Below are positions 4,360 to 26,028 of a DNA stretch of 64,000 nucleotides, in pieces (position 1 is the first letter of the stretch; every line of letters begins with the position of its first letter). Source of the DNA: Escherichia virus TH57; sequence record MT446422.1. The stretch is one strand, 5' to 3'. Made by a program: the position numbers and the translations under genes. The notes beneath the pieces were generated by a model. That model saw only the letters and a list, made by a program, of their open reading frames with translations, did no database searches and was not told where the DNA came from.

Positions 4360-4390
4360 TATCCCATCAACTACTGATGAGGAAAACAAA

Positions 4391-4826: not shown

Positions 4827-5120
4827 ATGGGTAAAACTATCCGTCGTAAAGAATTGTCTGTAAAAGATTTTTATTATTCCGGACGTCGTAAAGCACCAGA
4901 CGGTGTAAGTCAGGAACAAGTTGAAGAAAATATTTTCCGTTCAGACAAATGGAAGCGTATGCGTGGCGTTGATTCAGAAGTCAAGAATGAAATGAATCGT
5001 CAACTGCGCAAAGAAGTTCGCCAGTTGAAAAAAGATGTATACGTTGAGGATGATTTTGATTATAATACTTCTCACCGTGTTGCAAAGCGTAAATCAAATG
5101 AATGTTATCGTTACAGTTGA
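4827..5120 (+). CDS. hypothetical basic protein (97 aa)
   Basis: ORF track. GAGG SD 5 nt upstream. Lys/Arg rich. Confidence 0.55.
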   Translation: MGKTIRRKELSVKDFYYSGRRKAPDGVSQEQVEENIFRSDKWKRMRGVDSEVKNEMNRQLRKEVRQLKKDVYVEDDFDYNTSHRVAKRKSNECYRYS

Positions 5121-5127
5121 GGAAAAT

Positions 5128-5259
5128 ATGAATATCAAACGTATGCTTTTTAAACAAGGGTTATACACTTTAAATTCTGCTCCAAAAGGCGATACAACCA
5201 AGTGGTCAGTAAATGACTGGATTGAATTTATTGATGAAAACGGTAACTGGAAAATTTAA
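5128..5259 (+). CDS. small hypothetical protein (43 aa)
   Basis: ATG 5128 behind GAGGAAAAT. The longer track ORF (5035) overlaps the previous gene in another frame. Confidence 0.45.
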   Translation: MNIKRMLFKQGLYTLNSAPKGDTTKWSVNDWIEFIDENGNWKI

Positions 5260-5457
5260 ATGAACCCTGAATCTAAATTATCACAGCGAATTGCTGAAGC
5301 TCGTCGCCAGTTTTTTGAAAATATGATAGCTCAAGGTATCGATGACGAAGTTTTTCTAAACTGGTTTTGGAATCACAAGTATTCAAGTTGTTCAGGAGCG
5401 ATATTCATATCAGCCGCAATGATGTATGAAGGCTGGAAAGCGGCTAAAGCGCAATAA
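5260..5457 (+). CDS. hypothetical protein (65 aa)
   Basis: ORF track. Starts immediately after the upstream stop. Confidence 0.5.
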   Translation: MNPESKLSQRIAEARRQFFENMIAQGIDDEVFLNWFWNHKYSSCSGAIFISAAMMYEGWKAAKAQ

Positions 5458-19009: not shown

Positions 19010-20188
19010 ATGTCTATTGCAGATTTGAAATCCCGTTTGATTAAAGCTTCTACATCCAAAATGACTGCGACTCTTACTAAGTCCAAGTTTTTTAATGATA
19101 AAGATGTAGTTCGTACAAAAATCCCGATGCTGAACATTGCAATCAGCGGTGCACTAGATGGTGGTATGCAGTCAGGTTTGACTATTTTTGCTGGTCCGTC
19201 AAAACACTTTAAATCCAATATGGGTTTAACGATGGTCTCTGCATATATGAACAAATACCCCGAAGCAATCTGTTTGTTCTATGATTCAGAATTTGGTATC
19301 ACAGAAGCCTATCTGCGTGCAATGAAAGTAGACCCGGAGCGTGTTATCCACACACCAATCCAGTCGGTTGAACAATTGAAAGTTGATATGGTTAACCAGC
19401 TTGAAGCAATTGAGCGTGGTGAAAAAGTCATTATCTTTATTGACTCAATCGGTAACATGGCGTCAAAAAAAGAAACAGAAGATGCGATGAACGAAAAAGT
19501 CGTTGGCGATATGACTCGTGCTAAATCCCTGAAATCTCTGTTCCGTATTGTTACCCCATATTTTAGTATCAAGGATATTCCTTGTGTCGCGGTTAACCAT
19601 ACAATCGAGACGATTGAGATGTATAGCAAAACCGTTATGACCGGTGGTACAGGTGTTATGTATTCTGCGGACACCGTATTCATTATCGGCAAACGCCAGA
19701 TTAAAGAAACTGGTAAAGAACTTGAAGGTTTCCAATTTGTTCTGAATGCCGAAAAATCTCGTATGGTCAAAGAGAAAAGTAAATTCTTCATTGATGTAAA
19801 ATTCGATGGTGGTATTGACCCGTATTCTGGCCTGCTTGATATGGCAATGGAAATCGGATTTGTAGTGAAACCGAAAGTTGGTTGGTATAACCGTGAATAT
19901 CTTGATGTTGAGACCGGTGAAATGGTCCGCGAAGAAAAATCATGGCGTGCAAAAGATACTAACTGTACTGAATTCTGGGGCCCGTTGTTTAAGCACGAAC
20001 CTTTCCGTGACGCAATCAAACGCCATTACCAACTGGGTGCAATCGATAGCAATGCTGTTGTTGATGCCGAAGTTGATGCGCTTATTGCCTCCAAGGTTGA
20101 AAAATACTCTGCCCCTGAAGGTAAGGCAAAACCATCTGCGGCAGATATCGAAAACGATTTAGATATGATGGAAGACCTTGATGAATGA
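19010..20188 (+). CDS. uvsX: Recombinase UvsX (RecA-like)
   Basis: 392 aa. DLKSRLIKASTSK, Walker A GPSKHFKS, KSWRAKDTNCTEFWGPLFKH and an acidic C-terminus match recalled T4 UvsX. Confidence 0.97.
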   Translation: MSIADLKSRLIKASTSKMTATLTKSKFFNDKDVVRTKIPMLNIAISGALDGGMQSGLTIFAGPSKHFKSNMGLTMVSAYMNKYPEAICLFYDSEFGITEAYLRAMKVDPERVIHTPIQSVEQLKVDMVNQLEAIERGEKVIIFIDSIGNMASKKETEDAMNEKVVGDMTRAKSLKSLFRIVTPYFSIKDIPCVAVNHTIETIEMYSKTVMTGGTGVMYSADTVFIIGKRQIKETGKELEGFQFVLNAEKSRMVKEKSKFFIDVKFDGGIDPYSGLLDMAMEIGFVVKPKVGWYNREYLDVETGEMVREEKSWRAKDTNCTEFWGPLFKHEPFRDAIKRHYQLGAIDSNAVVDAEVDALIASKVEKYSAPEGKAKPSAADIENDLDMMEDLDE

Positions 20189-20522
20189 TATCGATTTATC
20201 TGATTTAGATAATTTCGAGAAAGATGCGGAGGGAGCTAAGGCTCCTTCTGTGCCTTACTACGAAAAAAGTTTGGAGATTATCCGGCAATCCATGGGAACC
20301 GTACGACAGGAAATTCTGTTATCACTCCCTGATGGGTCCAATCACATTGTGTACGTAACCGGAATTAAAATTGAACCATCTGGAAAAGTTTCCGTTGATT
20401 TCGGCACCCCTTCTGAAGACCGCAAAGCGGAGCTTGCAGTGCATGTAGAAAAGTGTGTTACAATGCAAATACAAGATGAAATTGATAAGATTAAAATGAA
20501 AAAGAGGTGGTGGAAGTGGTAG
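20181..20522 (+). CDS. 40: gp40-position protein (head vertex assembly chaperone in T4)
   Basis: 113 aa ORF between uvsX and 41, as T4 gene 40. Assignment is by position and size only. ATG 20181 (the track gives TTG 20178). Confidence 0.5.
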   Translation: MNDIDLSDLDNFEKDAEGAKAPSVPYYEKSLEIIRQSMGTVRQEILLSLPDGSNHIVYVTGIKIEPSGKVSVDFGTPSEDRKAELAVHVEKCVTMQIQDEIDKIKMKKRWWKW

Positions 20523-21946
20523 AAACTATTTTATCCCAGCTACTCTTTAACAAGGAATATTTTGTTAAAGTCTGGCCATATCTTAATAACACATATTTTG
20601 AAAAGGGTCCAGCAAAGACCCTTTTTAATACGATTAACGAACACGTAAAAGAATATCAAGCGGTACCAACTAAGACTGCACTTGATATCGCGCTCGACAG
20701 TTCTGACCTTTCTGAAGTCGAATATGAAGGCACAAAGAAACTCTTAGGAGTCCTGGCCGATACTCCAGAAGACCAGGAATGGTTGGTCAAAGAAACCGAG
20801 AAGTATGTACAGAAGTCTGCGATGTTCAATGCCACATCCAGGATTATCGAAATCCAGAGTAATGCCGAACTTCCAAAAGATAAACGTGATAAACGAATCC
20901 CAGATATTGGGGCTATCCCTGACATCATGCGCGATGCATTGTCCATCTGTTTTGACTCTGCTCTGGGGCATGACTGGTTAAACGATTACGAAGCTCGATT
21001 CCAGACTTATCTGAACAAATCGAAGAAGGTTCCGTTCCGTATTAACATCCTGAATAAAATCACGAAGGGTGGAGTTGAGTACGGCACAGAGAACGTTTTA
21101 CTGGCCGGGACAAACGTCGGCAAATCCCTTGGACTTTGTTCGTTAGCGGCTGACTATCTTCAGACTGGTCATAACGTGCTTTATATAAGCATGGAAATGG
21201 CTGAAGAAGTATGTGCCAAACGTATTGATGCCAACTTGTTGGATGTATCTCTGGATGATATTGATGAAGGTCATGTGTCATGGGCAGAATACAAAAGTAA
21301 GATGGAAAAATGGCGTGCTTCCGGGACTCTCGGGACTCTGAAGATAAAACAATATCCAACTGGGGGCGCGCATGCGGATACCTTCCGTGCATTACTGAAC
21401 GAGTACAAACTGAAGCAAGGATTTGTACCGGATGTGATTATTGTTGACTACCTGGCAATCTGCGCAAGCTCAAGACTGAAAACGTTTACCGAAAACAGTT
21501 ACGGCCTGATTAAGATGGTTGCAGAAGAACTTCGTGGTCTGGCGGTCGAGAAAAATGTGGTCCTGTGGACTGCAGCACAGACAACCAGGGGCGCAAACGT
21601 TGCAGCTGAGATTGACATGGCTGACATCGCAGAATCCTTTGGTATTGCTCACACGGCTGACTTTATGTTGGGTGTTGTTGAGACCGAAGAATTCGCTCAA
21701 ATGGGACTGCAGTTAATCAAACAGCTTAAGTCTCGTTATGGCGATAAGAACTACTATAATAAATTCAAGATGGGTGTTAAGAAAGGTAATCAACGCTGGT
21801 ATGAGGTTGATGATGATTCAGCTCCTAAACAAGGCCCTACGGTGAAAGAAGCCACTGGTGAGATGAATCGTCAGGCTGAAATGAATAGACAAACCAGGGT
21901 CAACAGGAGCGACCTGGATGACCTTGCCGCTCAAATGAAATTTTAA
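20507..21946 (+). CDS. 41: Replicative DNA helicase gp41 (DnaB-like)
   Basis: About 476-479 aa. ILSQLLFNKEYFVKVWPY, Walker A GTNVGKS, YISMEMAEEVCAKRIDAN, SRYGDKN. GTG start (20507, or 20516 which aligns with T4 MVEIILSH). Confidence 0.95.
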   Translation: MVEVVETILSQLLFNKEYFVKVWPYLNNTYFEKGPAKTLFNTINEHVKEYQAVPTKTALDIALDSSDLSEVEYEGTKKLLGVLADTPEDQEWLVKETEKYVQKSAMFNATSRIIEIQSNAELPKDKRDKRIPDIGAIPDIMRDALSICFDSALGHDWLNDYEARFQTYLNKSKKVPFRINILNKITKGGVEYGTENVLLAGTNVGKSLGLCSLAADYLQTGHNVLYISMEMAEEVCAKRIDANLLDVSLDDIDEGHVSWAEYKSKMEKWRASGTLGTLKIKQYPTGGAHADTFRALLNEYKLKQGFVPDVIIVDYLAICASSRLKTFTENSYGLIKMVAEELRGLAVEKNVVLWTAAQTTRGANVAAEIDMADIAESFGIAHTADFMLGVVETEEFAQMGLQLIKQLKSRYGDKNYYNKFKMGVKKGNQRWYEVDDDSAPKQGPTVKEATGEMNRQAEMNRQTRVNRSDLDDLAAQMKF

Positions 21947-21958
21947 AATATTTTAAAA

Positions 21959-21978
21959 GGGGCTTACAGCCCCTTTTT
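21959..21978 (+). terminator. rho-independent terminator after gene 41
   Basis: GGGGC-TTACA-GCCCC plus T5. Confidence 0.75.
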
Positions 21979-21991
21979 CTTATGTTATAAT
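21962..21991 (+). promoter_or_regulatory. early promoter overlapping the terminator (PeSL-like)
   Basis: -35 GCTTACA is the terminator loop, 17-nt spacer, TATAAT 21986-21991. Leader CCTATCAACTACTGGAGAATAAA-ATG. Confidence 0.65.
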
Positions 21992-22017
21992 GACCCTATC
22001 AACTACTGGAGAATAAA

Positions 22018-22335
22018 ATGAAAACTATTGATTGCAAAGCGGAATACAAAGTTTATTATCATGGCTCAAGCTCTAATGCTGGAATCCAAAATATGCTTTG
22101 CCCTCCTGATGCAACTGGTGTTCTGTCAGAAGTTGGGCGCAAGAAAAATTTAGGGCGTGTGTTTTTTACTGAAGATATTGGTTTGGCCCGTATCTATGCA
22201 GGAAGAGCAGCTCGCTCGTATGGAGGAGAACCCCGTCTTTATCGTGTGATTGCACCTGTTGACGTGGTTTGTTTAAATGATACTAAAGGTGCTACAGTTT
22301 ATCACGCTGACTGGGCCTTCTGTGAGGAAATCTAA
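22018..22335 (+). CDS. truncated ADP-ribosyltransferase-fold protein (Mod/Arr-like mini-ART)
   Basis: 105 aa. YYHGS...(29 aa)...GRVFFTEDIGLARIYAG parallels LYRGV...(22 aa)...GRITSFTEDYGIARDFAA of the Mod-type ART at 29063 in this window, with Arg->His and Ser->Phe at motif positions. Ends before the ExE region. Has its own early promoter. Confidence 0.45.
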   Translation: MKTIDCKAEYKVYYHGSSSNAGIQNMLCPPDATGVLSEVGRKKNLGRVFFTEDIGLARIYAGRAARSYGGEPRLYRVIAPVDVVCLNDTKGATVYHADWAFCEEI

Positions 22336-22548
22336 ATGTATAAATTAGAGAACGTAGTGTTTATTGGTTGGTTTGAAAATGGTAATATGTTTACCAAAGA
22401 AACTGCACTAGATGTTAGCGACCAAAATATGATTGAATGGGTCACAGTGCAGTATGCAGAAGTGAATAATGCGCTGGTGAAAGCCTTTGTTAATGACAAT
22501 AAAGTTTTTGAATATGATTATCGTATCCACTTATCTGAGGAAATCTAA
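22336..22548 (+). CDS. dmd: Dmd (discriminator of mRNA degradation; antitoxin against RnlA/LsoA)
   Basis: 70 aa. VVFIGWFENGNMFTKE...YAEVNNALVKAFVNDNKV matches recalled T4 Dmd (VVFMGWFKNESMFTKE...YAEVNKALVKAFIDDKKV). Adjacent to 41, as T4 61.5. Confidence 0.8.
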   Translation: MYKLENVVFIGWFENGNMFTKETALDVSDQNMIEWVTVQYAEVNNALVKAFVNDNKVFEYDYRIHLSEEI

Positions 22549-22890
22549 ATGGCTTTTAATCCAGAAGACCGCGTAAAAGTAACAATCAAAGTGAGTGCTG
22601 TTGGTGTACCATCTTTTGAACGTTCTAGCATGTTCCACCCAGCAGGTATTCACTGGTATGTCCAGAAGACTGCTGATAACTATAATGCACTGGTTGAAGC
22701 TTTTGTTGATGACAAGCTAATTCATAAAGTAGACATGCGTAAGGGTACTGCATTGCGTAATCTGATTTTGACCGTTGAAGCTCAACTGGTAAATGAAGAA
22801 ATCTGCCTTACTGATATTGAAGCAGCTCTTCATATTGCGCGTGCTGAATATTACAACTTGACTGGTTTTTCAGTTGAAGGCGAAAAATAA
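22549..22890 (+). CDS. Dmd-like paralog (113 aa), position of T4 61.4
   Basis: ADNYNALVEAFVDDKLIHKVDMR parallels AEVNNALVKAFVNDNKVFEYDYR of the preceding gene. The identical 16-nt junction TGAGGAAATCTAAATG precedes both genes. Confidence 0.55.
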   Translation: MAFNPEDRVKVTIKVSAVGVPSFERSSMFHPAGIHWYVQKTADNYNALVEAFVDDKLIHKVDMRKGTALRNLILTVEAQLVNEEICLTDIEAALHIARAEYYNLTGFSVEGEK

Positions 22891-22920
22891 GTGTACAACA
22901 AAGGGATAATGCTGTATATT
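22891..22920 (+). promoter_or_regulatory. early promoter (sp unit)
   Basis: GTGTACA 22891-22897, 17-nt spacer, TATATT 22915-22920. Hairpin GGGATAAT/ATTATCCC 22903-22925 spans the -10. Confidence 0.6.
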
Positions 22921-22948
22921 ATCCCTATCAACTACTGAGGAGATTGAA

Positions 22949-23242
22949 ATGAAAAAGTTATTAATTGCAGCAATTCTTACCGTAGCATCATGTGGTACAG
23001 CTCCAGTTACTGCTGGGCTTGATAAAGACCTTTGTGAGTGGTCTATGACCGCTGACCAGACTGATGTTGAACATCAGATTTATGCTGATATCATGAACAT
23101 AACTAAACGTGACCGTCCTGATATGGTTAAAGAAGTGTCTGACCAACTGGCTTCTGGTGACGTTATGCAGTATAACTATGTTCTGTATTGCGATGCTTCA
23201 TTCGACAACAGCAAAATTGTTCAATGGGTTACAGGTGAATAA
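22949..23242 (+). CDS. sp: Spackle (periplasmic inhibitor of gp5 lysozyme; superinfection exclusion)
   Basis: 97 aa, as in T4 Sp. Signal peptide. DKDLCEWSMTADQTDVE...VMQYNYVLYCD matches recalled T4 61.3. Confidence 0.8.
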   Translation: MKKLLIAAILTVASCGTAPVTAGLDKDLCEWSMTADQTDVEHQIYADIMNITKRDRPDMVKEVSDQLASGDVMQYNYVLYCDASFDNSKIVQWVTGE

Positions 23243-23243
23243 A

Positions 23244-23681
23244 ATGATTAACAGAAATTTGGTTATCAAAAAACTTCGCTGTAAAAATCCAAATGCGCAA
23301 GCATACAGAGTGTTTTGGAGCGACGAGATTCAATATCTGGGTTATTTTCTTGTTGACAGTGATAATAGAATTACGTTTGCTCATAAGCTTCTTAACAAAG
23401 AATTAAACCATTGGCAAGAACTTATTGCAGTCAAGTCTAAATTATTTTCATGCAATGCAATGCACCAATTGGTTTATTTTTTCGCTGATGGTATTCCTGA
23501 CAAGGTTGAGTTTGAAGGGTTTGAATTTAAAGACATCAATCCAGACAATGAATTGAATAATGATGTTGTTAATATGGGTATCCCTGGTAAGTACATCAAA
23601 AACAGTCTTTTGAAAATTCTGGAAAATCCTGTTTATTCAGTTGACGACCAAATTTTTAATGCCTTTATGAAGCGAGATTAA
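23244..23681 (+). CDS. hypothetical protein (145 aa) with DDQIFNAFMKR tail
   Basis: ATG 23244 just after the sp stop (the track ORF extends back over sp). The C-terminal 12 aa are shared with the next ORF. Position of T4 61.2/61.1. Confidence 0.6.
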   Translation: MINRNLVIKKLRCKNPNAQAYRVFWSDEIQYLGYFLVDSDNRITFAHKLLNKELNHWQELIAVKSKLFSCNAMHQLVYFFADGIPDKVEFEGFEFKDINPDNELNNDVVNMGIPGKYIKNSLLKILENPVYSVDDQIFNAFMKRD

Positions 23682-23682
23682 T

Positions 23683-24039
23683 ATGAGTTATTATAATTTT
23701 CTGAATTTTGAACTGGCCAGCAATAATGATGGTAATGCTCGTTATGAATTTCGTGAGCCTCGGTTTAATCAGGCGATTGGTTATATTATCGTTAAAGATG
23801 ATGTTATCATAAAGGCTCGCTCATTTATGGTAATGGATGGACCTTATGAAGATACTCGTGGATACCCATTTGATAAAAAGAATGTGCGCGATTGCGCAAT
23901 CTGGATAACTGGGAACCCTGAAATTGGGGTCATGATATCTACTGAAGCGAATGACATTCTGGAAGGGGTAGCCAAAGCTCAAGAACCGCCTACTGATATT
24001 GATGACCAGATTTTTAATGCCTTCATGAAGCGAGGTTAA
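23683..24039 (+). CDS. hypothetical protein (118 aa) with DDQIFNAFMKR tail
   Basis: ORF track. C-terminus IDDQIFNAFMKRG versus VDDQIFNAFMKRD in the upstream ORF. The 43-nt junctions are about 88 percent identical. Confidence 0.6.
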   Translation: MSYYNFLNFELASNNDGNARYEFREPRFNQAIGYIIVKDDVIIKARSFMVMDGPYEDTRGYPFDKKNVRDCAIWITGNPEIGVMISTEANDILEGVAKAQEPPTDIDDQIFNAFMKRG

Positions 24040-24040
24040 T

Positions 24041-24262
24041 ATGTTTGTTTTGACCCAATTCTCTAAAGCAATATATAGTTACTCTTGCCAGTGGGAAGTC
24101 TTTATTGATACTCCTTCGCCTAAGTATGGTGTTTTTGGACGAGTAACTACTCAAGCTTATGTTGCACGACCGACTAAACGTCAGATTCGTAAACTTAAAA
24201 AGGCACATCGTCAATTGATTAAAAGAAGGGAACAATATGAGTGCAATGTGTACGGGCTCTAA
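24041..24262 (+). CDS. hypothetical basic protein (73 aa), RPTK-tail family
   Basis: ORF track. YVARPTKRQIRKLKKAHRQ resembles YTRPTKKMIRQFKRLHR of ORF 433..609. Confidence 0.55.
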   Translation: MFVLTQFSKAIYSYSCQWEVFIDTPSPKYGVFGRVTTQAYVARPTKRQIRKLKKAHRQLIKRREQYECNVYGL

Positions 24263-24428
24263 GATTTCGGTCTTCCAGATTTTTGAAGAATATGAAATCG
24301 TGTCGCAAGACCAAGAAGCAATCCATGTTATCGCTGATGATGGTGTTACCTGGATTATTCCGTTGTATCATGAAGACACTTATGAAGTGACTGATGCAAA
24401 TGGTGATAAAGCTATCTTCGTTGTATAA
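24237..24428 (+). CDS. hypothetical acidic protein (63 aa)
   Basis: ORF track. AAGGGAACAAT-ATG. Confidence 0.5.
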   Translation: MSAMCTGSKISVFQIFEEYEIVSQDQEAIHVIADDGVTWIIPLYHEDTYEVTDANGDKAIFVV

Positions 24429-24431
24429 ATA
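24424..24431 (+). promoter_or_regulatory. late promoter
   Basis: Perfect TATAAATA, 16 nt before ATG 24448. Confidence 0.7.
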
Positions 24432-24447
24432 GCGGAAAGGGGGTGTT

Positions 24448-24615
24448 ATGAAAACATTCAAAGATTTTATAAACGAAGATATGGTTGCCGGTGATGCAGG
24501 TGGAAACCCAACTAATATCGCAACAGGTACCACTTCCGGGGCAGTTGTCAATAAAGGCCCTGAACAAATCCCATCAAAAAAGCGTAAGAACAAAGACGAT
24601 AAACCTACAGTATAA
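24448..24615 (+). CDS. small late protein (55 aa) with internal-protein-type capsid targeting sequence
   Basis: Below the track cutoff. Perfect late promoter TATAAATA 24424-24431, SD AAAGGGGG. MKTFKDFINE-DMVAGDAGGNPTNIATGTTSGAVVNKGPEQIPSKKRKNKDDKPTV. The first 10 aa parallel the T4 IPIII CTS MKTYQEFIAE. Confidence 0.6.
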   Translation: MKTFKDFINEDMVAGDAGGNPTNIATGTTSGAVVNKGPEQIPSKKRKNKDDKPTV

Positions 24616-24632
24616 TGGTCCCCCGGGACCAT
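24615..24632 (+). other. GC-rich hairpin just upstream of the gene 61 SD
   Basis: ATGGTCCC-CC-GGGACCAT (contains CCCGGG). No U-run. SD GAGGAAA follows at about 24639. Confidence 0.45.
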
Positions 24633-24647
24633 TGAAATGAGGAAACT

Positions 24648-25676
24648 ATGTCATATATTGATAAAGAATTTGCGGTCAGAGCTTTATCGTATCAACCACG
24701 TTATAGAGAAGTCACCGGGAGCACATTTAAAGCAAACTGTCGTTGTAAGGTTTGCGGGGACTCCCAGAAAGATTCACATAAGGCTCGATTCTGGGCGTAT
24801 ACCAATCCGTCTGATGGTGCGGTTTACGTGAAATGTTTTAACTGTGACTACTCCACGCATATAAGCAAATACATAAAAGAGTTTGAGCCGGATTTGCACC
24901 GGGAATATATGGTTGAGAAGTACAAGGAAAATGCCTTCGGTCGACAACGTAATGAAGTTGCAGAAACTCCGAAAGAACCAGAAAAAACTCCGGTTATTGA
25001 AGAGCTTGCTTTTTGCGAAAGAATCGATACTTTACCAGAAGCACATCCGATAGTTAAGTATGTGAAAAGTCGGTGTATTCCGAGCAATGTTTGGAACCGG
25101 TTATGGTTTACAAACAAATGGCCTGCATTAGTTAACTCCGTTAATCCTGGGACGTATAAGAATGAAACGAATGAACCACGCTTGGTTATTCCTATCTTCA
25201 ACGGCAAAAAAGAAATCGAATCTTTCCAAGGACGAGCTCTTCGCAAAGATGCACCACAAAAATATATCACAATCAAAGCTCACCCAGAAGCTTCCAAAGT
25301 CTATGGCGTAGACAAGATTGATGAGCGCAAGCGCGTGTGGGTAATGGAAGGTCCGATTGATAGTTTGTTTATCCCTAACAGCATTGCGATAACCGGTGGA
25401 ACATTAGCATTGGAAGCCGTTCCTTATGCTGAAACCCGAGTATGGGTAATGGACAACGAGCCAAGACATCCGGATACGATTAAACGTATGAAGAAACTCG
25501 TTGAAGCTGGCGAAGCTGTTATGTTCTGGGACAATGCACCATGGCATACGAAAGACATAAATGAGATGGTTAAATCGGAGGGTGCAACCCCTGAACAAAT
25601 CGAATCATATATGGCCGATAACGTTGCTCAAGGGCTGATGGCGAGAATGCGACTTTCGAAGTACGCAAAAGTTTAG
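24648..25676 (+). CDS. 61: DNA primase gp61
   Basis: 342 aa, as in T4. Zinc ribbon CRCKVCGDS...CFNC. EPRLVIPIFN, TOPRIM EGPIDSLF, DNEPRHPDTIKRM, MRLSKYAK. Confidence 0.96.
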   Translation: MSYIDKEFAVRALSYQPRYREVTGSTFKANCRCKVCGDSQKDSHKARFWAYTNPSDGAVYVKCFNCDYSTHISKYIKEFEPDLHREYMVEKYKENAFGRQRNEVAETPKEPEKTPVIEELAFCERIDTLPEAHPIVKYVKSRCIPSNVWNRLWFTNKWPALVNSVNPGTYKNETNEPRLVIPIFNGKKEIESFQGRALRKDAPQKYITIKAHPEASKVYGVDKIDERKRVWVMEGPIDSLFIPNSIAITGGTLALEAVPYAETRVWVMDNEPRHPDTIKRMKKLVEAGEAVMFWDNAPWHTKDINEMVKSEGATPEQIESYMADNVAQGLMARMRLSKYAKV

Positions 25677-25784: not shown

Positions 25785-25982
25785 CTATATAAGGCCGATT
25801 AATGCCAGTGAAACATCTACAACTGATTCGAGTGCGATGACTGGCAATATAACGCCATGTGCCAATGCAACAGGGGCAACAATGAAATTCCAGAGTAGAA
25901 CTAAACAGAGTATCGAAAGGACTAGAATCGTTCGCTTACGACTGCCTTTGATGGCTTGAATTAGACTAGATAGTTTTAGCAT
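25785..25982 (-). CDS. small membrane protein (65 aa) on the opposite strand
   Basis: ATG at 25982 behind AAAGGAGGATAT. MLKLSSLIQAIKGSRKRTILVLSILCLVLLWNFIVAPVALAHGVILPVIALESVVDVSLALIGLI (basic N-terminus, two hydrophobic helices). CATAAATA late-like promoter 16 nt upstream. Confidence 0.55.
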   Translation of the reverse strand: MLKLSSLIQAIKGSRKRTILVLSILCLVLLWNFIVAPVALAHGVILPVIALESVVDVSLALIGLI

Positions 25983-25998
25983 ATATCCTCCTTTCTTG

Positions 25999-26006
25999 TA
26001 TTTATG
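25999..26006 (-). promoter_or_regulatory. late-like promoter (7/8) for the reverse-strand ORF
   Basis: The reverse complement reads CATAAATA, 16 nt before ATG 25982. It abuts the MotA box of the divergent gene 56 promoter, the same layout as 61723-61738. Confidence 0.45.
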
Positions 26007-26028
26007 CTTCAAACCAATATGATATAAT
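26005..26028 (+). promoter_or_regulatory. MotA-dependent middle promoter (gene 56)
   Basis: TGCTTCA 26005-26011, 11-nt spacer, TATAAT 26023-26028. Confidence 0.65.

Follow-up and report, generated by a model that had tools for sequence, protein, structure and literature searches.

What kind of genes do T4-like phages collect between the helicase gene 41 and the primase gene 61, and are these genes directed against host defense? We address this question for Escherichia virus TH57 (sequence record MT446422.1), of which a stretch of 64,000 nucleotides (nt), hereafter called the window, was analyzed. An earlier note on this DNA had described nine small open reading frames (ORFs) between the two replication genes, and had proposed a general locus acting against toxin-antitoxin (TA) systems and other defenses. 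We conclude, at a rough probability of 85%, that Gaprivervirus phages have in this interval their own version of the hyperplastic dmd-tifA-sp-adfA-61.1 region of T4, the published candidate anti-TA island, with early conflict genes that turn over at repeats.

In T4 the order in this slot is 41, dmd, 61.4, sp, 61.2, 61.1, 61. Gene 61.4 is tifA, which encodes an inhibitor of the toxin ToxN (PMC10853763), and 61.2 is adfA, which encodes an anti-DarT1 factor that binds the toxin; the earlier note had named both assignments, and the literature agrees with them. Srikant et al. 2022 stated that the T4 region “may be an anti-TA island” and regarded other genes there as “attractive anti-toxin candidates” (PMC9391042). 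The concept of an anti-TA island is already in print. What is new here is another genus with a different set of cassettes, the recognition of ORFs G, C, E and F as relatives of three validated factors, an invariant C-terminal tail, and a miniature protein of the ADP-ribosyltransferase (ART) fold.

The gene order in the window is uvsX (19010-20188), gene 40, gene 41 (helicase, 20507-21946), the nine small ORFs and gene 61 (primase, 24648-25676), and at the DNA level Gaprivervirus phages such as TH15, PSD2001, VR20 and SP18 share 95-96% identity with it. All nine ORFs were found; lettered A to I in gene order (Table 1), they are co-oriented on the + strand and fill the 2.7 kb from the gp41 stop (21946) to the gp61 start (24648). 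Each of them has a PHROG family match (E-values of 1e-26 to 1e-93), and they are therefore regarded as conserved genes and not as chance ORFs. Searching NCBIfam gave no meaningful match for any of the nine, and the profile searches (Pfam, PHROG, NCBIfam) assigned a housekeeping function to none of them; such an assignment the earlier note had held incompatible with its proposal. A gp61-seeded scan of IMG/VR yielded 5 loci only, so that GenBank phage records were used for the comparison of loci instead, and 25 related genomes were tiled for ORFs in the 41-61 interval.

The slot between genes 41 and 61, the orientation of the genes and their early transcription agree with the T4 region (Srikant, Guegler and Laub 2022, PMC9391042), and Dmd, Spackle, a TifA-family gene, 61.1 and proteins with the AdfA tail are all present. 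Unlike the T4 region, the TH57 interval carries E and F in place of a canonical AdfA, its TifA-family gene lies downstream of F and not beside dmd, and A, C and H, which are absent from T4, are present.

Relatives of Dmd, Spackle and TifA

ORF B reaches 72.6 bits against the Pfam profile of Dmd (PF17587, cut-off 27), with residues 4-63 aligned over profile positions 3-59 of 60, and it is 56% identical to T4 Dmd. ORF D reaches 147.8 bits against Spackle (PF25676), with residues 1-96 aligned over positions 1-96 of 96, and is 66% identical to T4 Sp. These scores confirm the two genes named by the earlier note. By its profile match ORF B is Dmd, of the antitoxin mimic family predicted to inhibit the toxins RnlA and LsoA, and ORF D is Spackle, the predicted periplasmic inhibitor of the gp5 lysozyme of a superinfecting phage.

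ORF G had been listed as an unrecognized basic protein with an RPTK tail. Its basic nature stands (isoelectric point, pI, 10.1), but the protein can be recognized as a relative of TifA: it scores 72.2 bits against Pfam DUF7279 (PF23945, cut-off 24.5), compared to 72.7 bits for T4 TifA, and is 39% identical to T4 TifA over 62 amino acids (aa; E-value 5e-14). It contains a conserved Pro-Thr cap followed by a basic helix, RPTKRQIRKLKKAHRQLIKRR (ARPTKRQIRKLKKAHRQLIKRR), and a Pro-Thr cap with a basic alpha-helix is a conserved feature of TifA (Guegler 2023, PMC10853763). From its sequence we regard ORF G as a full member of the TifA family with a predicted RNA-binding function. It shares with T4 gp61.4, the RNA-binding inhibitor of the type III toxin ToxN (PMC10853763), the family score, the cap with the basic helix and the N-terminal beta region, and differs from it in length (73 vs 85 aa), in sequence at the identity given above, and in its position in the island. 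The TifA-family gene follows F in the sp operon, and does not share an operon with dmd directly 3' of it as tifA does in T2, T4, T6 and RB69. Relatives vary in this respect: in VR7 and VR25 a second gene of the TifA family is located upstream of sp and, as in T4, follows dmd (and here also C), whereas in MN01 and DK-13 a TifA-family gene comes directly after dmd. Altogether the family of G and TifA occurs in 619 phage records.

ORF C was described earlier as a paralog resembling dmd, and the pairwise comparison is in agreement with this: it is 34% identical to T4 Dmd over 56 aa (E-value 1.6e-7), the Dmd-like part comprising about residues 15-64. Against the Pfam profile of Dmd it remains under the cut-off of 27 with 19.1 bits, covering profile positions 29-59 only. 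Its sole matches in the PDB are two Dmd structures (E-values 0.055 and 0.31), and an extension of approximately 50 aa follows the Dmd-like half. There is fair reason in the sequence to call ORF C Dmd-like, and “Dmd-like paralogue” seems apt, without counting it as a certified member of the Dmd family. It occurs in only 15 phage records and may represent a Dmd-derived inhibitor of a different toxin.

ORFs E and F and the tail shared with AdfA

ORFs E and F take the same slot after sp as AdfA (T4 gp61.2 / RB69), and they end, as AdfA does, in DDQIFNAFM-x-R-G/D. The C-terminal tail common to both, which had been noticed earlier, corresponds to a 45-nt direct repeat with 91% identity. The core DDQIFNAFM of the tail peptide DDQIFNAFM-x-R-G is identical in E, F, T4 AdfA, Mosigvirus AdfA and the P0142 body type, and a near-identical tail with a single residue change, N to E, is located near the end of the 143-aa protein f20 of phage EcS1. 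If the nine core codons are compared across T4, Mosigvirus, Gaprivervirus and Dhakavirus, all nucleotide changes are found in third positions and are synonymous, the N to E change of EcS1 excepted. This restriction to third positions indicates that the tail peptide itself is under selection.

The relationship beyond the tail is less obvious. The Pfam profile of AdfA (PF23813, cut-off 27) gives 20.6 bits for F, with the last 15 residues only aligned to profile positions 197-211, and no match of this profile to E was reported. Comparing E 22-145 with AdfA 118-208 by hhalign leads to a probability of 97% and an E-value of 4e-11. Without its last 16 residues E still aligns with the C-terminal half of AdfA over 71 columns (score 22.8, P about 0.002-0.005), with Y-x-G-x-h-h-V-x-DNRIT in common. 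F without its tail scores 17.5-22.9 against both halves of AdfA and against E (hhalign, P 0.005-0.02), around the same hairpin motif; for the N-terminal half of AdfA the range is 17.5-20.5 (P 0.006-0.02). Six unrelated families of the island served as controls and scored 8-14.5, one comparison reaching 17.0 (F vs sp), with P of 0.07-0.4. E and F have the hairpin motif G-h-h-h-V-K/D-D-N-x-I in common with AdfA, and in F this motif, IGYIIVKDDVII, resembles FVFVKNNEII of AdfA. Around the specificity residue H164 of AdfA the alignment with E and F is weak. They further differ from AdfA in their size (145 and 118 aa compared to 208-216 aa), in remaining under the Pfam threshold and in the weakness of the homology outside the tail. 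We consider it probable but unproven, on these alignments, that E, F and AdfA are of common ancestry; AdfA has the appearance of two E/F-like modules in tandem.

The idea that E and F are the pieces of a split AdfA was rejected. Their order is reversed, as E resembles the C-terminal half and F the N-terminal half, each has a tail of its own, and F-like proteins occur alone in T2 and beside AdfA on the metagenomic contig L043, where an AdfA gene and an F-like gene are 361 nt apart.

The two families differ in their distribution. E belongs to a tiny family with 3 representatives among 1.8 billion proteins and occurs in 85 phage records, compared to 8 close clusters and 332 phage records for F. 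In T2 the adfA slot is filled by a homologue of F with approximately 50% identity, and the same holds for about 300 further records, most of them named Tequatrovirus. A homologue search with F at E-values up to 1 did not draw in AdfA through the tail. A scan for the tail with degenerate DNA found the types of AdfA, E and F, among them F-like proteins that have diverged. The body of the EcS1 protein has no similarity to E, F or AdfA, and for this reason not all tail carriers are claimed to be homologous throughout.

A separate observation concerns the P0142 protein (143 aa), which is 38% identical to E overall, and whose last 30 residues (KYIKNSLLKILE.PVYSVDDQIFNAFM.R.) differ from those of E at two positions only. 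Either the body was replaced upstream of a conserved 3' segment, or the constraint changes very sharply along the protein.

Could the tail be conserved mainly at the DNA level, as a recombination joint and a signal for translational coupling that allows bodies to be swapped before the next gene? The two 45-bp repeats are the exact borders between which the F cassette has come or gone, the Shine-Dalgarno sequence and the start codon of the following gene lie within the last codons of the tail (CGAGGTTAATATG), A and dmd both end in an analogous junction repeat, TGAGGAAATCTAAATG, and the contrast between body and end in P0142 points in the same direction. We nevertheless regard this explanation as doubtful, because the core codons show synonymous third-position changes only, with the EcS1 residue as the sole amino acid change, which indicates selection on the peptide. 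The gene that follows the tail varies by phage (F, G, H or 61.1), so that the conservation is not explained by any single downstream gene. A role of the tail in the DNA and a role of the peptide are compatible with each other. Returning to a role of the peptide, E and F may be short paralogues of the anti-DarT factor AdfA, in which the variable bodies would set the target and the invariant C-terminal peptide would represent the shared functional element.

ORF A and the weighing of the proposed anti-TA island

A fold comparison assigns ORF A to the ART fold (split beta-sheet ART core), with Tpt1, Arr and AcrIF11 as the closest structures. At the sequence level no match was found in Pfam, NCBIfam or PDB families, profile search included, and only the fold comparison was informative. 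The earlier note had spoken of a truncated ART fold. The fold holds, the truncation does not: the 115 clusters of homologues measure about 80-140 aa, mostly 96-110 aa, with 52-98% identity, and since ORF A has the normal size of its family it is not truncated. Invariant in the family are H15, G16, R41, N44, F49, T51, D53, Y60 and R63, with H15 and G16 in the motif H15-G16-S, F49 in VFFT and Y60 in IYAGRA. By analogy, H15 and the downstream aromatic residue would be the residues that contact nicotinamide adenine dinucleotide (NAD) in the H-Y clade, and both are in place. E103, near-invariant (at least 90% of the sequences) and located three residues from the C-terminus, is a candidate for the catalytic acid.

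Among small ART enzymes of the H-Y type, AcrIF11, Arr and Tpt1/KptA are the obvious references; ORF A is smaller still with its 105 aa, and has no detectable sequence similarity to them. AcrIF11, a small phage ART that acts as a catalytic anti-defense factor, is a precedent for a comparable role of ORF A, but not evidence for it. ORF A may be an enzyme that uses NAD to modify either a host factor or nucleic acid.

The family is found in 609 phage records, comprising phages of Escherichia, Klebsiella, Acinetobacter, Aeromonas and Vibrio, and in Acinetobacter phage Ac42 the homologue also lies inside the 41-61 interval. No copy of ORF A turned up in the T4 and T2 loci that were examined. In phage Lw1 the homologue (5001-5318) is part of another accessory region, a few genes away from RNA ligase 2 and NAMPT (NAD salvage). 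This neighborhood is possibly a hint towards an RNA- or NAD-linked role, or a coincidence.

ORF A could also be a conserved metabolic, repair or resistance enzyme without a part in counter-defense, either a Tpt1-like RNA 2'-phosphotransferase or RNA-end ADP-ribosylase, or an Arr-like modifier of small molecules. This has to be taken seriously as a possibility, although we place it below even odds. The very high conservation of ORF A is more in line with an enzyme acting on a conserved substrate than with a binder in an arms race. On the other side stand the lack of any family match in sequence, the missing N-terminal domain of Tpt1, and the position of ORF A, which opens the immediate-early dmd operon in this clade; its absence from T4 and T2 indicates that it is dispensable.

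An extended proposal would join these leads. AdfA, E, F, P0142 and the EcS1 type might form a wider and hitherto undescribed “AdfA superfamily” of modular phage inhibitors, in which the tail is a warhead or a docking helix for a conserved site of ART-type or other toxins and the body picks the toxin, and ORF A might be a new NAD-dependent counter-defense enzyme comparable to AcrIF11 that many T4-like phages possess. We put this forward as speculation, and consider it rather unlikely to hold in full.

For the interval as a whole, the proposal of a general locus against TA systems and other defenses is supported by the TifA-family protein G, the AdfA tail of E and F, and the Dmd-like ORF C. It does not extend to all of the genes, as sp and 61.1 are not directed against host defense, sp being aimed at a competing phage. 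The particular alleles of TH57 are putative inhibitors of defense systems. Besides the two genes just named, several observations weigh against an anti-TA island. Deletion of AdfA in T4 gives no DarTG1 phenotype. The TifA homologues assayed by Guegler et al. from other E. coli and Pectobacterium phages neutralized no ToxN homologue assayed (PMC10853763), which means that membership in the family does not predict the target. If the tail is removed, the likeness of E and F to AdfA is weak (hhalign probability 2-14%, P 0.002-0.03). An AlphaFold2 model of E from an alignment of 4 sequences was poor, with a predicted local distance difference test score of 60.5 and values below 45 in the tail helix, and a Foldseek search of BFVD with this low-confidence model returned the own family of E and a 118-aa protein, which is probably F-like, but not AdfA. 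ORF A, finally, has homologues that lie outside the 41-61 interval, namely those of Lw1 and of a Vibrio phage not of the T4 type, and with approximately 60-70% identity into Acinetobacter and Aeromonas phages it is far more conserved than one would expect of an arms-race binder.

Points of this kind also bear on the question whether the interval is a generic hyperplastic dumping ground for mobile ORFans, in which Dmd and the TifA-like gene reside by chance and most other genes are unrelated to defense. T4-like genomes contain many such regions, shuffled regardless of gene function by promoter-early stem-loops (PeSLs; PMC4122927), other genera carry superinfection-immunity and lipoprotein genes in the same interval, and neither H nor A, the latter with its homologues in unrelated loci, has a link to any defense system. 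We hold this to be improbable, since three experimentally validated anti-TA families (Dmd, TifA and AdfA) map to one short interval, and five of the nine ORFs in the window (B, C, E, F and G) are related to one of them.

Promoter cassettes, breakpoints and neighboring genes

How such an island stays expressed while its content changes can be approached from its signals and borders (Table 1). A promoter scan placed the two early promoters, which had been proposed at 21962 and 22891, at 21963-21991 (-35 CTTACA at 21963, a spacer of 17 nt, TG-extended -10 TATAAT at 21986-21991) and at 22892-22920 (TGTACA-17-TATATT). Both are followed by CCCTATCAACTACTG-(A)GGAGA-ATG, and the segment 21986-22008 is repeated at the second cassette with 87% identity (repeat D5). 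The first promoter overlaps a terminator-type hairpin at 21955-21977 (A4G4-loop-C4T5; -14.7 kcal/mol, folding z = -3.7), and a second hairpin at 22902-22926 encloses part of the second cassette (folding z = -3.95). On the + strand of the window the leader CCCTATCAACTACTG occurs at six cassettes composed of -10 element, leader, Shine-Dalgarno sequence and ATG (GTGTACA-N17-TAnAnT), and with up to three mismatches 8 matches were counted compared to 0.94 expected by chance. This enrichment is an argument that both promoters belong to the early-promoter class of the phage itself. In its extended form the cassette reads (A)nG..GTGTACA-N17-TAnAnT, leader CCTATCAACTACTG(AT)GAGGA, ATG, and is located at 4362, 21994, 22923, 29639, 33775 and 44344 of the + strand. 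For a promoter alone this conserved transcribed leader is unnecessarily long, and it may represent a regulatory or recombination module.

Table 1. Features of the 41-61 interval of Escherichia virus TH57, with positions in the window
Feature	Position	Strand	Size	Description	Family
PeSL-type cassette	21955-22017	+		Hairpin overlapping early promoter, then leader CCCTATCAACTACTG and Shine-Dalgarno sequence	
ORF A	22018-22335	+	105 aa	Miniature ADP-ribosyltransferase-fold protein, translationally coupled to dmd	
ORF B	22336-22548	+	70 aa	Dmd	Pfam PF17587
ORF C	22549-22890	+	113 aa	Dmd-like N-terminal half with C-terminal extension; rare cassette	
Second early promoter cassette	22892-22948	+		TGTACA-17-TATATT, leader CCCTATCAACTACTG and Shine-Dalgarno sequence as in the first	
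ORF D	22949-23242	+	97 aa	Spackle (sp)	Pfam PF25676
ORF E	23244-23681	+	145 aa	AdfA-related, ends in tail SVDDQIFNAFMKRD	
ORF F	23683-24039	+	118 aa	Second tail-bearing protein, ends in DIDDQIFNAFMKRG	
ORF G	24041-24262	+	73 aa, pI 10.1	TifA family	Pfam DUF7279 (PF23945)
ORF H	24237-24428	+	63 aa, pI 4.1	Small acidic protein	phrog_3249
Late-promoter motif	24424-24431	+		TATAAATA, 16 nt before the ATG of ORF I	
ORF I	24448-24615	+	55 aa	gp61.1	

PeSLs are composite terminator/promoter elements of T4-type phages that mediate gene shuffling (PMC4122927). At the first cassette a terminator-like stem-loop and an early promoter are combined, repeated, and located at the border of an indel. It shares with the published PeSL cassettes (Arbiol 2010, Comeau 2014) the A4G4/C4T5 stem-loop joined to an early promoter, the repetition across the genome and the position at an indel breakpoint. 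Unlike in these, the conserved unit runs further downstream into a shared leader with a Shine-Dalgarno sequence (CCTATCAACTACTG..GAGGA), and several breakpoints of the island fall at repeats within coding sequence.

The late promoter proposed at 24424 corresponds to the motif TATAAATA, exactly at 24424-24431. The motif is not enriched across the window (7 found, 5.1 expected), but is kept at the same position in all Gaprivervirus and Dhakavirus loci examined despite diverged flanks, and is also located upstream of the long form of 61.1 in phiR1-RT. The ORFs are spaced by 0-1 nt or overlap, with the exception of the two promoter gaps, which measure 71 nt (in front of A) and 58 nt (in front of sp), and of 19 nt before I. 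We infer from this arrangement three transcription units, with A-dmd-C read from the first early promoter, sp-E-F-G-H from the second and I from the late promoter.

Comparing gene content across T4-like genomes, as the earlier note had suggested, showed a strongly polymorphic interval: in the 25 genomes it measures 1.0-3.5 kb and contains 3-11 ORFs. Within Gaprivervirus zero, one or two additional genes precede A, and C is present, absent, swapped for a 79-aa TifA-family gene or joined by a 98-aa one. VR26 lacks dmd, where dmd and C are replaced by a 188-aa protein (interval positions 782-1348) with a signal-peptide-like N-terminus and no assigned family, and the Dhakavirus KIT01 has two copies of dmd. 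F and G are each present or absent among the relatives. In Mosigvirus AV110 a membrane protein of the superinfection-immunity (Imm) family and a DUF5481 lipoprotein are located between dmd and sp, which indicates that the slot gathers phage-phage exclusion genes besides anti-TA genes.

The polymorphism had been expected to be bounded by promoter cassettes. This applies to the breakpoint at 21954-21956, where the additional gene modules of the relatives are inserted exactly at the PeSL hairpin. The others fall at gene junctions and tail repeats. These are the breakpoint 22525/22880, which comprises C plus the last 8 codons of dmd, the indel of F bounded by the tail repeats 23641-23685 and 23999-24043, and the precise indel of G at 24043/24234. 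The alleles are mosaic as well: with Dhakavirus, A, dmd, sp and E have 88-92% identity, compared to 80% for gp41 and 69% for gp61, whereas in VR7 of the same genus the four genes reach 73-79% and C 62%, compared to 99% for gp41 and 97% for gp61. The alleles from A to E are nearer to another genus than to a phage of the same genus, which represents strong allelic mosaicism.

At the start of the island the ends of A and dmd share a 22-nt junction (22317-22338 and 22530-22551; ..TGAGGAAATCTAAATG), and both proteins end in -EEI. In the A/dmd and dmd/C junctions, CT-x-TGAGGAAATCTAAATG, the stop codon, the Shine-Dalgarno sequence and the next start codon form a repeated unit. The C-terminus of Dmd in the window differs from that of relatives without C (..YDYRSNEK vs ..YDYRIHLSEEI).

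Two genes remain at the end of the island. ORF H, which is acidic as described before (pI 4.1), overlaps the stop of G by 26 nt. Phage records with H number 260 and comprise Mosigvirus, but H is missing from those T4 and T2 loci that were examined. ORF I is 75% identical to T4 61.1, and is a nearly universal, late-expressed gene and not an accessory one. We take the capsid-targeting consensus of T4 internal proteins to be an N-terminal MKT-x-x-x-F-I-x-E followed by a gp21-type cleavage site; the N-terminus of ORF I, MKTFKDFINE, resembles such a sequence, with MKTFKDFINE|D and the conserved TATAAATA both present. Short (53-55 aa) and long (154-177 aa) forms of gp61.1 share a highly conserved C-terminal peptide of approximately 45 aa, DMVAGD..GTTSGAVVNKGPE..KKRK, which in both forms follows an LxE/IxE site like that of the prohead protease (FINE|D or LPLFE|D). 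This suggests that 61.1 is processed to a peptide which is packaged in the head. In front of the ribosome-binding site of gene 61, after ORF I, the perfect palindrome GGTCCCCCGGGACC is found at 24617-24630 (-11.5 kcal/mol, z = -2.2, without a T-run), a hairpin that could represent an element of RNA stability or processing rather than a terminator. An antisense ORF of 137 aa at 24219-24632 was treated as spurious, with no test devoted to it, as it lies opposite to conserved + strand genes and is annotated in no relative.

Further observations were made in the neighborhood of gene 61 and uvsX. The gap between genes 61 and 56 is also variable among the relatives, and the window contains a 75-aa membrane-type ORF at 25785-26012 (- strand), the counterpart of which in EAWsc9 is annotated “holin family”. 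In DK-13 a homing endonuclease is fused behind gene 61, and in MX01 dam and one additional ORF are located 3' of gene 61. In Salmonella phage CF-SP2 (821-3150) uvsX is annotated as two pieces with a 241-aa ORF between them, so that a mobile element (homing endonuclease or intein) has probably inserted into this recombinase gene.

A mechanistic picture of the anti-TA island could be as follows. Two strong early promoter cassettes would drive two tightly coupled operons, A-dmd-C and sp-E-F-G-H, so that the products of the island would appear within the first minutes of infection. The shut-off of host transcription would let labile antitoxins decay and free their toxins, and early toxin-binding proteins would be supplied just then. 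These products would be small and mostly single-domain, with Dmd, the TifA-family protein and Spackle set by their profile scores, and ORF I would stand apart as a separate late gene, probably for a packaged peptide. Turnover may proceed by homologous or microhomology recombination at short repeats which double as expression signals, namely the promoter/terminator cassettes, the junctions of stop codon, Shine-Dalgarno sequence and start codon, and the 45-bp tail repeats. As the recombination sites would themselves be expression signals, every inserted gene would arrive ready for expression.

The role of the helicase-primase slot as an island of conflict genes would accordingly not be confined to T4 and RB69, but hold for Gaprivervirus and Dhakavirus too. 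Nine “hypothetical proteins” lead to specific hypotheses that are cheap to examine, among them a relocated TifA paralogue, a Dmd-derived protein, two short relatives of AdfA and a very widespread ART fold of 105 aa. The breakpoints show how islands may stay expressible while shuffling, with promoters, ribosome-binding junctions and conserved gene ends as the sites of recombination. The shared tail may help to find more members of the AdfA group and to dissect the action of AdfA, and it is in this tail and in the miniature ART, both testable leads, that the main interest lies.

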